Origin: Escherichia coli
GTDB taxonomy: Bacteria; Pseudomonadota; Gammaproteobacteria; Enterobacterales; Enterobacteriaceae
NCBI RefSeq assembly: GCF_003334255.1
Contig: NZ_QOWU01000006.1
Direction: 5' to 3' (one strand)
DNA length: 64,000 bases
Every line of letters starts with the position of its first letter. The first letter of the stretch is position 1. Positions 1-36,298 of the stretch are shown in pieces. A program made the position numbers and the translations under genes. Under the pieces are notes generated by a model, which saw only the letters and a program-made list of their open reading frames with translations, had not been told where the DNA came from and did not search any database.

Positions 1-619
1 TCAGCGTCAGCAGGCCGTTAACGACCAGGTAAATAATCCCTGCCGCACCGAACACCATTACATCGTAGGTGCGTCCGTACAACAACTGGCTGTATCCCAT
101 CACTTCCATCAGCGTAATGGTGTATGCCAGAGAGGTACTTTTGAATACCAGCACCACTTCGTTGGAATAAGAAGAGAGCGAGCGTTTAAAGGCATACGGC
201 AGCAGGATCGCCAGCGTATCTTTTTTGCTCATTCCCAGGGCGCTACAGGACTGCCACTGACCTTCCGGGATCGCACGAATTGCACCGTAAAACAGCTGCG
301 TGGTATACGCCGCACTATTCAGCGACAACGCAATCAGCGCACATAACCACGGTTCTGACAACAAATGCCACAGTGCCGGATACTCCTGCAAAGTCGGAAA
401 CTGGCCCGGCCCGTAATAAATCAGGAAGATCTGCACCAGCAGCGGCGTACCGGTAAACAGCGTGATATAACCCCGCACCAGCCACACCAGCACCGGCGTT
501 TTCAGCGTCAGGATGATGGTAAAAATCAATGCCAGAATCAGTGCCACAATCAGCGAGGCAACGGTTAGCGTCAGGCTGGTGTGTAGCCCTTTCATCAGTT
601 CGGGTAAATACTCAAACAT
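1..619 (-). CDS. artM: Arginine ABC transporter permease ArtM (3' end cut by window edge)
   Basis: Minus-strand frame from ATG at 617-619 translates [13 protein letters not shown]...; start overlaps artQ stop; expected operon position. Confidence 0.85.
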   Translation of the reverse strand, partial: MFEYLPELMKGLHTSLTLTVASLIVALILALIFTIILTLKTPVLVWLVRGYITLFTGTPLLVQIFLIYYGPGQFPTLQEYPALWHLLSEPWLCALIALSLNSAAYTTQLFYGAIRAIPEGQWQSCSALGMSKKDTLAILLPYAFKRSLSSYSNEVVLVFKSTSLAYTITLMEVMGYSQLLYGRTYDVMVFGAAGIIYLVVNGLLTL

Positions 620-32308: not shown

Positions 32309-35300
32309 TTGAGCCAGGAATACACTGAAGACAAAGAAGTCACATTGACAAAGTTAAGTAGCGGCCGCCGCCTTCTGGAGGCGTTGCTGATCCTTATTGT
32401 CCTGTTTGCCGTCTGGTTGATGGCTGCCTTACTAAGCTTTAACCCTTCGGACCCCAGCTGGTCGCAAACGGCCTGGCATGAACCTATCCATAATTTAGGT
32501 GGGATGCCCGGTGCGTGGTTGGCAGATACGCTGTTCTTTATTTTTGGCGTGATGGCTTACACCATTCCCGTCATTATTGTCGGCGGTTGTTGGTTTGCCT
32601 GGCGTCATCAGTCCAGCGACGAATACATTGATTATTTTGCCGTTTCGCTACGCATCATTGGCGTTTTGGCGCTCATCCTTACCTCCTGTGGTCTGGCGGC
32701 AATCAACGCTGACGATATCTGGTATTTTGCCTCCGGTGGCGTCATTGGCAGCTTACTAAGCACTACGCTACAACCACTGCTACACAGTAGCGGGGGAACT
32801 ATTGCGCTGCTCTGCGTTTGGGCAGCGGGCCTGACGTTGTTCACCGGTTGGTCATGGGTGACCATTGCTGAAAAACTCGGCGGCTGGATTTTAAACATTC
32901 TCACCTTCGCCAGTAATCGTACCCGTCGCGATGATACCTGGGTCGATGAAGATGAGTATGAAGACGACGAAGAGTATGAAGATGAAAATCACGGCAAACA
33001 GCATGAATCACGCCGTGCCCGTATTCTTCGCGGCGCGCTAGCGCGTCGTAAACGGTTGGCGGAAAAATTCATTAATCCGATGGGGCGGCAAACAGACGCT
33101 GCGTTGTTCTCCGGTAAGCGGATGGATGATGACGAAGAGATTACCTACACTGCACGCGGTGTGGCTGCCGACCCGGACGACGTCCTATTTTCGGGCAATC
33201 GTGCAACGCAGCCAGAATATGACGAATACGATCCATTATTAAACGGTGCGCCAATTACCGAACCTGTCGCTGTAGCAGCTGCTGCTACCACGGCGACACA
33301 AAGCTGGGCTGCGCCGGTTGAACCTGTGACTCAGACGCCGCCTGTTGCCTCTGTTGATGTTCCACCTGCGCAACCTACAGTAGCCTGGCAGCCTGTACCG
33401 GGTCCACAAACGGGAGAGCCGGTTATTGCTCCTGCACCGGAAGGTTACCCACAGCAGTCACAATATGCGCAGCCTGCAGTGCAATATAATGAGCCGCTGC
33501 AACAACCAGTACAGCCGCAGCAGCCGTATTATGCACCTGCAGCTGAACAACCTGCGCAACAGCCGTATTATGCCCCTGCGCCAGAACAACCGGTGGCAGG
33601 TAACGCCTGGCAAGCCGAAGAGCAGCAATCCACTTTTGCTCCACAGTCTACATACCAGACTGAGCAAACTTATCAGCAGCCAGCCGCTCAGGAGCCGTTG
33701 TACCAACAGCCGCAACCCGTTGAACAGCAGCCTGTTGTGGAGCCTGAACCCGTTGTAGAAGAGACAAAACCCGCGCGTCCGCCGCTTTACTACTTTGAAG
33801 AAGTTGAAGAGAAGCGAGCCCGTGAACGTGAACAACTTGCGGCCTGGTATCAACCGATTCCAGAACCGGTTAAAGAACCAGAACCGATCAAATCTTCGCT
33901 GAAAGCACCTTCTGTTGCAGCAGTACCTCCAGTAGAAGCCGCTGCCGCTGTTTCCCCGCTGGCATCTGGCGTGAAAAAAGCGACACTGGCGACGGGGGCT
34001 GCCGCAACCGTTGCCGCGCCAGTCTTCAGTCTGGCAAATAGCGGTGGACCGCGTCCTCAGGTCAAAGAGGGGATTGGTCCGCAGTTGCCACGACCGAAAC
34101 GTATCCGCGTGCCAACTCGTCGTGAACTGGCGTCTTACGGTATTAAGCTGCCCTCACAGCGTGCGGCGGAAGAAAAAGCCCGTGAAGCCCAGCGCAATCA
34201 GTACGATTCTGGCGATCAGTACAACGATGATGAAATCGATGCGATGCAGCAGGATGAACTGGCACGTCAGTTCGCCCAGACACAGCAGCAACGCTATGGC
34301 GAACAGTATCAACATGATGTGCCCGTAAACGCAGAAGATGCAGATGCTGCGGCAGAGGCTGAACTGGCTCGTCAGTTTGCGCAAACTCAACAACAACGTT
34401 ATTCCGGCGAACAACCGGCTGGGGCGAATCCGTTCTCGCTGGATGATTTTGAATTTTCGCCAATGAAAGCGTTGCTGGATGATGGTCCACACGAACCGTT
34501 GTTTACGCCAATTGTTGAACCTGTACAGCAGCCGCAACAACCGGTTGCACCGCAGCAGCAATATCAGCAGCCGCAACAACCAGTTCCGCCGCAGCCGCAG
34601 TATCAGCAGCCACAACAGCCGGTTGCGCCGCAGCCACAATATCAGCAGCCGCAACAACCGGTTGCGCCACAGCAGCAATATCAGCAGCCGCAACAACCGG
34701 TTGCGCCGCAGCAGCAGTATCAGCAGCCACAACAGCCAGTTGCGCCACAACCGCAGGATACCCTGCTTCATCCGCTGTTGATGCGTAATGGCGACAGCCG
34801 TCCGTTGCATAAACCGACGACGCCGCTGCCTTCTCTGGATTTGCTGACACCGCCGCCGAGCGAAGTGGAGCCGGTAGATACCTTTGCGCTTGAACAAATG
34901 GCTCGCCTGGTGGAAGCGCGTCTGGCTGATTTCCGTATTAAAGCCGATGTCGTCAATTACTCTCCGGGGCCGGTTATCACTCGCTTTGAATTGAACCTGG
35001 CACCGGGCGTAAAAGCGGCGCGCATTTCTAACTTGTCACGGGACCTTGCCCGTTCACTTTCGACGGTGGCGGTGCGTGTCGTTGAAGTTATTCCTGGCAA
35101 ACCCTATGTAGGTCTGGAGTTACCGAATAAAAAACGACAAACCGTTTATCTGCGCGAAGTTTTGGATAACGCCAAATTCCGCGATAATCCGTCGCCATTA
35201 ACCGTGGTGCTGGGTAAAGATATCGCCGGTGAGCCGGTGGTTGCCGATCTGGCGAAAATGCCGCACTTGTTGGTTGCGGGGACTACCGGTTCCGGTAAAT

Positions 35301-36298
35301 CTGTCGGTGTGAACGCGATGATCCTGAGCATGCTTTATAAAGCACAGCCAGAAGATGTGCGTTTCATCATGATCGACCCGAAAATGCTGGAGCTTTCGGT
35401 TTATGAAGGCATTCCGCATCTGTTAACGGAAGTCGTTACTGATATGAAAGATGCCGCCAACGCGCTGCGCTGGTGTGTTAACGAGATGGAGCGTCGGTAT
35501 AAACTGATGTCTGCGCTGGGTGTGCGTAATCTGGCGGGTTATAACGAAAAAATTGCTGAAGCCGATCGCATGATGCGTCCGATTCCAGACCCGTACTGGA
35601 AGCCGGGTGACAGTATGGATGCCCAGCATCCGGTGCTGAAAAAAGAACCATACATTGTGGTGTTGGTTGACGAATTTGCCGACCTGATGATGACGGTAGG
35701 TAAAAAAGTGGAAGAGCTGATAGCACGTCTGGCGCAAAAAGCCCGTGCCGCGGGTATCCACCTCGTACTGGCAACTCAGCGTCCATCGGTTGATGTTATT
35801 ACTGGTCTGATTAAAGCGAATATTCCGACCCGTATCGCCTTTACCGTATCCAGTAAGATTGACTCACGTACCATTCTTGATCAGGCTGGCGCGGAATCAC
35901 TGCTGGGTATGGGGGATATGCTCTACTCTGGGCCGAACTCCACGTTGCCGGTACGTGTCCATGGTGCTTTTGTTCGCGATCAGGAAGTTCATGCCGTGGT
36001 GCAGGACTGGAAAGCGCGTGGTCGCCCACAGTATGTTGATGGCATCACCTCCGACAGCGAAAGCGAAGGTGGTGCGGGTGGTTTCGATGGCGCTGAAGAA
36101 CTGGATCCGTTGTTCGATCAGGCGGTGCAGTTTGTCACTGAAAAACGCAAAGCGTCAATTTCTGGCGTACAGCGTCAGTTCCGCATTGGTTATAACCGTG
36201 CAGCGCGTATTATCGAACAGATGGAAGCGCAGGGGATTGTCAGCGAACAGGGGCACAACGGTAATCGTGAAGTGCTGGCCCCACCGCCGTTTGACTAA
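32309..36298 (+). CDS. ftsK: DNA translocase FtsK
   Basis: 1329 aa: N-terminal membrane domain, PQ-rich linker, C-terminal motor (Walker A GTTGSGKS) and gamma domain. Confidence 0.95.
34520..34760 (+). repeat. In-frame tandem coding repeats in the FtsK linker ([10 protein letters not shown] units)
   Basis: Near-identical ~33-39 nt units cagcagccgcaacaaccggttgcgccgcagc... repeated about six times. Confidence 0.85.

Follow-up and report, generated by a model that had tools for sequence, protein, structure and literature searches.

The tandem repeat in the linker of Escherichia coli FtsK is the VNTR typing locus CVN001

The ftsK gene and its linker

The window that was analyzed is a 64,000-nucleotide stretch of an Escherichia coli genome (contig NZ_QOWU01000006.1 of RefSeq assembly GCF_003334255.1). 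The repeat of interest is housed by ftsK (32309..36298, + strand), an open reading frame of 3990 nt that encodes 1329 amino acids from a TTG start, as assigned by the ORF tool. Over its full length (residues 1–1329), the protein matches the NCBIfam equivalog NF007615, "DNA translocase FtsK", with a score of 3049 bits against a cut-off of 1566. A Pfam scan covering residues 501–1329 placed three domains in the C-terminal part of FtsK: FtsK_alpha (PF17854, aa. 840–940), FtsK_SpoIIIE (PF01580, the beta domain with its P-loop, aa. 948–1161) and FtsK_gamma (PF09397, aa. 1264–1324). The ORFs of the window are arranged in the order lrp-ftsK-lolA-rarA, with lrp upstream of ftsK and lolA and rarA downstream, in agreement with the RefSeq annotation of four of the E. 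coli alleles described below (L006 to L009). By equivalog, C-terminal domains and gene order, the host gene is E. coli FtsK.

A 701-nt stretch around the repeat shares 100% identity with many E. coli chromosomes, K-12 derivatives included. When used as a query, this stretch matched ftsK in each of the 5426 complete E. coli genomes, and RefSeq annotates "DNA translocase FtsK" under every match listed. The query was unsuited to allele sizing since it contains the repeat and more than half of its alignments broke at the array boundary.

The proline/glutamine-rich linker of FtsK (FtsKL) was reportedly described by Bigot et al. in 2004 and by Dubarry et al. in 2010. In the literature on the protein, the linker is presented as PQ-rich and unstructured (or "putatively unstructured"), with a length that differs from one species to the next; it is non-essential for growth and contacts divisome proteins (PMC5357621, PMC3140498, PMC3646729). 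The reviews among these papers report length variation between species, with no mention of a within-species VNTR. In the E. coli protein of the window, the linker extends over about 640 residues (roughly residues 180–817).

Anatomy of the array

The end of the linker is formed by a tandem array of six in-frame units of 39 nt, each encoding 13 amino acids (34526..34759, + strand; FtsK residues 740–817). Tandem Repeats Finder reported one array at 34526..34746 with a period of 39 nt, 5.7 copies, 88% matches and a score of 344. When translated in the ftsK frame, the unit consensus ends in (Q/P)QY and the final, sixth unit ends in D. The units share a mean pairwise identity of 87%, with a range of 77–95%. 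A higher-order period of 117 nt, or three units, was also reported within the array of the window (1.9 copies, 94% matches), and points to a past three-unit duplication of which it would be the trace.

At a lag of 39 nt, the array matches itself at 170 of 195 positions. Shuffling the codons of the whole gene gave a mean of 69.5 matches at this lag and a maximum of 84, and shuffling the 78 codons of the array alone gave a mean of 97.4 and a maximum of 116. The lag of 39 at 34526 is also the strongest short-period self-match anywhere in the 64-kb window. The tandem repeat is therefore real, far above chance and statistically unambiguous. An earlier note on this DNA had described near-identical tandem in-frame units in the FtsK linker, and Tandem Repeats Finder, the codon register and the shuffles uphold that description with coordinates that were essentially right. 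The unit length of about 36 nt given there needs correction to 39 nt (13 codons), as a period of 36 nt is ruled out by both Tandem Repeats Finder and the codon register.

The 78 residues of the array comprise 39 Q, 22 P, 6 V, 5 A, 5 Y and 1 D. Glutamine accounts for 50% and proline for 28%, or 61 of 78 residues together (78%). Only nine codons are used: CAG, CAA, CCG, CCA, GTT, GCG, GCA, TAT and GAT. The scan of residues 501–1329 found no Pfam domain over aa. 740–817, and 22 residues separate the end of the array from the start of FtsK_alpha at aa. 840. In both its low-complexity composition and its absence of a recognized domain, the array belongs to the PQ-rich linker, which is described as low-complexity, unstructured and of species-variable length. 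The earlier note had the repeats encode this linker. While the array does lie inside the linker and is PQ-rich, residues 740–817 are only its last 78 residues, or its C-terminal 12%.

Identity with the typing locus CVN001

CVN001, a VNTR of generic E. coli MLVA (GECM-7/GECM-10), was reportedly described by Lindstedt et al. in 2007, and it has also been adopted in the single-tube MLVA cited in PMC11773471. The CVN001 primers of the Lindstedt generic E. coli MLVA scheme (PMC8143711) both have exact and unique matches on either side of the array, the forward primer AACCGGCTGGGGCGAATCC at 34413..34431 (+ strand) and the reverse primer GGCGGCGGTGTCAGCAAATC at 34838..34857 (- strand). A variant primer pair (PMC11773471) also gave unique exact matches, at 34411..34431 (+ strand) and 34827..34848 (- strand), its forward primer being a longer version of the first. 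The primer table of the latter paper labels the locus "CNV001 (ftsK)", and the assignment to the host gene comes from this label together with the primer mapping.

With the primers of PMC8143711, the amplicon from the window is 445 nt. The sizing rule in the same paper, (product - 250)/39, gives (445 - 250)/39 = 5.0, or allele 5. The offset of 250 bp is composed of 211 nt of true flank and one unit; as a result, the MLVA allele number equals the unit count minus one. The array of the window and CVN001 agree in their primers, 39-bp unit, ftsK host, integer allele, and allele range and frequencies. They differ only in numbering, as the six 13-codon units of the sequence count as five in CVN001. 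With a flanking primer pair, a 39-bp unit that yields an integer allele and a copy number that changes from strain to strain, the array is the VNTR locus CVN001 of generic E. coli MLVA and is already well known. CVN001 has been placed among the most diverse loci (PMC8143711), and its variation was found to be second only to that of CVN014 (PMC5217547).

Copy-number variation in E. coli

For allele sizing, 120 nt of the left flank was joined to 240 nt of the right flank with the array omitted, and this query was searched against 5426 complete E. coli genomes. Both flanks were matched in all genomes but one. The array length was taken as the span between the flanks in 59 informative rows from a sample taken at even intervals along the ranked list; the sampling was systematic, neither random nor corrected for phylogeny. 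Eight matches of the flank query were on records labelled plasmid and one of the 5426 genomes was without a chromosomal match. The plasmid-labelled matches may represent mislabelled replicons or chromosomal segments on plasmids.

Nine length alleles were observed among the 59 genomes, and the array ranged from 39 to 351 nt. The most frequent lengths were 273 nt (seven units, 23 genomes) and 234 nt (six units, 22 genomes), followed by 312 nt (eight units, four genomes), 351 nt (nine units, three genomes) and 195 nt (five units, two genomes). A single genome had an array of 39 nt, or one unit. The other lengths involve partial units: 210 nt in two genomes, and 249 nt and 264 nt in one genome each. 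In 59 of 59 sampled genomes, the array length was a multiple of 3. Copy-number variation had been predicted in the earlier note, with a comparison of repeat number across strains as the suggested check; this comparison confirms it, and the variation is also the basis of the published typing locus. On the MLVA scale, allele 4 makes up 3% of the sample, allele 5 37%, allele 6 39%, allele 7 7% and allele 8 5% (n = 59). These figures resemble the PCR-based frequencies in Swedish ESBL isolates, where allele 4 was found at about 1%, alleles 5 and 6 at 40% each, allele 7 at 13% and allele 8 at 5% (PMC5217547).

Nine alleles were fetched for comparison. According to RefSeq, ftsK is an intact CDS in all nine, and the CDS lengths correspond to FtsK proteins of 1277 to 1381 aa. 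The number of whole units per array was 1, 5, 6, 7, 8 or 9. Partial units were present in three alleles, with the sequence QQPQY in L006 and L007 and QQPVVPQPQY in L008. In allele L004, one two-unit block is present twice and the units carry V-to-I and P-to-S changes. Among five full-length alleles, 10–23 substitutions were counted in the linker, and no more than one across the N- and C-terminal domains together. All of the length change in these five alleles fell within two arrays, the second of which is described below, and one flank deletion.

The shortest array, in L001 (NZ_CM149872.1, strain HCP4S3_I4), consists of a single 39-nt unit at 421..459 whose last residue is D, within an FtsK of 1277 aa that is annotated as intact. 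This allele was seen in a single assembly and could be either a real extreme or a collapsed repeat.

The flank deletion is that of L009 (NZ_CP148366.1, strain Z1323HEC0300), the sixtieth sampled row, in which the left flank was missing. An in-frame deletion of 126 nt, equivalent to 34419..34544 of the window, has occurred between 9-nt direct repeats (AACAACCGG) located at 34410 and 34536 of the window. It takes out 42 residues, AGANPF...EPVQQPQQP, including the conserved FEFSPMK...EPV segment. Since the site of the CVN001 forward primer is within the deletion, this strain would be scored as a null allele in MLVA.

Other features of the linker

A second in-frame tandem repeat of 39 nt is present in the same linker (33516..33591, + strand; FtsK aa. 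403–428), with two copies in the window and A/V as the last residue of the unit. Tandem Repeats Finder gave it a period of 39 nt, 1.9 copies and 86% matches. There are three copies in L006, L007 and L009, and four in L008. Since the second array is also polymorphic in copy number, ftsK carries two independent VNTRs.

Just upstream of the CVN001 array, a 14-residue motif occurs twice with a spacing of 21 residues (34256..34297 and 34361..34402, + strand; FtsK aa. 650–663 and 685–698). Salmonella and Klebsiella have retained both copies, and Edwardsiella has them in a diverged form. Conservation of this kind amid a variable linker suggests that the duplicated motif may be functional. Just past the membrane domain, Tandem Repeats Finder also identified an acidic tract with a 9-nt period, GAGTATGAA, in 3.2 copies (32954..32982, + strand; FtsK aa. 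~216–225). No variation of the acidic tract was seen among the five full-length alleles compared.

Many database entries are named "DNA translocase FtsK, partial" and come from contigs of approximately 0.5 to 2 kb; the two examined, P0044 and P0057, both stop inside the array. Such truncated entries indicate that assembly from short reads routinely fails at the VNTR in E. coli and Salmonella, which yields the many partial FtsK entries.

The array in other genera

A protein search with FtsK residues 640–900 returned mostly fragments, and example sequences from four genera were compared. In Salmonella, tandem copies of the E. coli 13-residue unit are found at the same position of FtsK. Another enterobacterial protein has three copies of a close variant of the unit, QQPAQPVAPQQHY. 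In Klebsiella and Cronobacter, the sequence at the position of the array is PQ-rich but degenerate, and no PQ segment was found there in the Edwardsiella examples compared. The flanks are conserved throughout the sequences compared, both in the upstream F/Y-E/D-FSPMK segment and in a segment downstream. Judged from these sequences, most of the enterobacteria compared, Edwardsiella excepted, would have a PQ-rich spacer at this position, and the clean, homogenized array seems not to extend beyond Escherichia, Salmonella and their near relatives.

The Salmonella array corresponds to the VNTR known as STTR7 or SENTR2, a 39-bp repeat in ftsK with 9.3 copies in S. Enteritidis (PMC2430564). Both loci occupy the orthologous position just upstream of the conserved sequence at which the motor region starts and have a 39-bp, 13-residue unit in common. 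Like the E. coli array, STTR7/SENTR2 of Salmonella enterica is polymorphic in copy number, with 9.3 copies in S. Enteritidis NCTC 13349 and about three in S. arizonae. It differs from the E. coli array in its genus, in having typically more copies and in substitutions at the level of the unit.

A more distant likeness is to phase-variable contingency loci, which also consist of tandem repeats in coding sequence that mutate by slippage. In contrast to these loci, the ftsK unit is made of whole codons, none of the 59 sampled alleles leaves the frame, and the gene is not switched on and off. Phase variation of ftsK is ruled out by the 59 in-frame lengths and by the intact ftsK of all nine fetched alleles.

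Mechanism and tolerance of length change

The gains and losses of whole units and blocks, and the occurrence of partial units at short direct repeats, suggest that the array changes in length by slippage or unequal recombination. Units that are long, similar and arranged head to tail would allow either replication slippage or unequal recombination to add or remove whole units, and short direct repeats within or beside the units would account for the occasional loss of partial units. Since 39 is a multiple of 3, each event preserves the frame, so that the tether is changed by 13 residues in either direction and the gene is not inactivated. The encoded segment is most likely part of a flexible, low-complexity tether that joins the membrane and divisome anchor to the hexameric motor, and length changes on the scale of these units would be tolerated by such a tether. 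That the array is CVN001, and that its alleles reflect tolerated in-frame length changes made by slippage or unequal recombination in a flexible tether, is the best explanation of the whole and one that can be held with high confidence.

From the natural alleles and one phenotype test in Salmonella, the length variation is probably tolerated and near-neutral. In the Salmonella study, a two-unit indel in the ftsK array was exchanged between strains and the phenotype tested was unchanged in the assay used (PMC6137255).

Another explanation, which appears unlikely, is that the copy number is functionally tuned. The length of the linker or the number of modules would set the reach of the motor, its force-sensing or the valency of its divisome contacts, and selection would hold the array at six to seven units. 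Six or seven units are indeed found in 76% of the sampled genomes and the extremes are rare (n = 59); however, a few dominant clonal lineages could be enough to produce these modal copy numbers. The concentration of alleles at six to seven units could be due to stabilizing selection or simply to clonal descent, and weak stabilizing selection around these values may be present. Tuning is also favored by the retention of the 13-residue unit in Salmonella and by the triplicate unit variant of the other enterobacterial protein, whereas the degenerate PQ sequence of Klebsiella and Cronobacter and its absence from Edwardsiella argue against it. In the ftsK frame, synonymous changes prevail among the codon differences between units (52 synonymous versus 19 non-synonymous), which implies some constraint on the peptide sequence and is in keeping with tuning, although the excess may stem from recent duplication and a constraint on composition. 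The natural isolates speak against tuning, as arrays of one to nine units, partial units and a 42-residue deletion of the flank all occur with an intact ftsK. The unchanged phenotype after the two-unit exchange in Salmonella argues in the same direction.

A bolder proposal, and a slightly more doubtful one, is that the module number is non-neutral and sets either the length or compliance of the tether from the septal anchor to the DNA pump or how many weak sites are available to a divisome partner. The two independently varying 39-nt arrays would then act as a mutational "length dial" bounded by selection.

Returning to tolerated in-frame change at CVN001, the copy-number differences themselves could in principle be artefacts of assembly, produced by collapse or expansion of the repeat. 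The array does break short-read assemblies, many database proteins are partial FtsK fragments from contigs of 0.5 to 2 kb, P0044 and P0057 among them ending inside the repeat, and the one-unit allele of L001 rests on a single assembly. The sample, however, was drawn from assemblies at the "complete genome" level, and PCR fragment sizing, which is independent of assembly, gave the same range of alleles at similar frequencies (PMC5217547). Unit-specific substitutions, among them the V-to-I and P-to-S changes of L004, also fit real lineages. An artefactual origin is consequently very improbable.

Alternative-frame ORFs across the array

Three long ORFs in other frames span the array and were judged spurious: two on the antisense strand, of 247 aa (34154..34897, - strand) and 115 aa (34503..34850, - strand), and one of 100 aa in the +1 frame (34479..34781, + strand). 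Within the array, four of the five other frames are free of stop codons and the fifth has a TGA at each unit junction. Since four other frames are rendered stop-free by the nine-codon inventory, open frames are expected from the composition alone. The codon differences between units are also distributed unlike those of the ftsK frame, with 31 synonymous and 40 non-synonymous in the frame of the 247-aa ORF, 6 and 63 in that of the 115-aa ORF, and 0 and 69 in that of the 100-aa ORF. Variation between units is mostly synonymous in the ftsK frame alone and, on this pattern, the alternative-frame ORFs look spurious. The earlier note had expected the repeats to produce spurious antisense ORFs; two such ORFs are present, and both the codon inventory and the substitution pattern argue that they are spurious.

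That one of these ORFs is a real overlapping gene, whether the 247- or 115-aa antisense ORF or the 100-aa ORF in the +1 frame, is scarcely credible. The ORFs are long, and indels in multiples of 39 nt would keep them open in all alleles. However, the open frames follow from the nine-codon inventory, and the ratios of 31/40, 6/63 and 0/69 compare poorly to 52/19 in ftsK. In addition, the translations are of low complexity (LLRLLILLL...) and the region of the array is annotated solely as ftsK among the RefSeq matches listed. On the codon inventory and the substitution pattern, the reading as a genuine antisense or overlapping gene was rejected.

Implications

The practical value of the array is modest and already in use, as CVN001 is among the most variable markers of generic E. 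coli MLVA and its orthologue serves in the typing of Salmonella. For annotation, the locus is a reminder that the length of FtsK is strain-dependent and that long ORFs in other frames over such arrays are not to be called genes. For the biology of FtsK, the natural range of one to nine units provides a measure of how much length change the tether tolerates.
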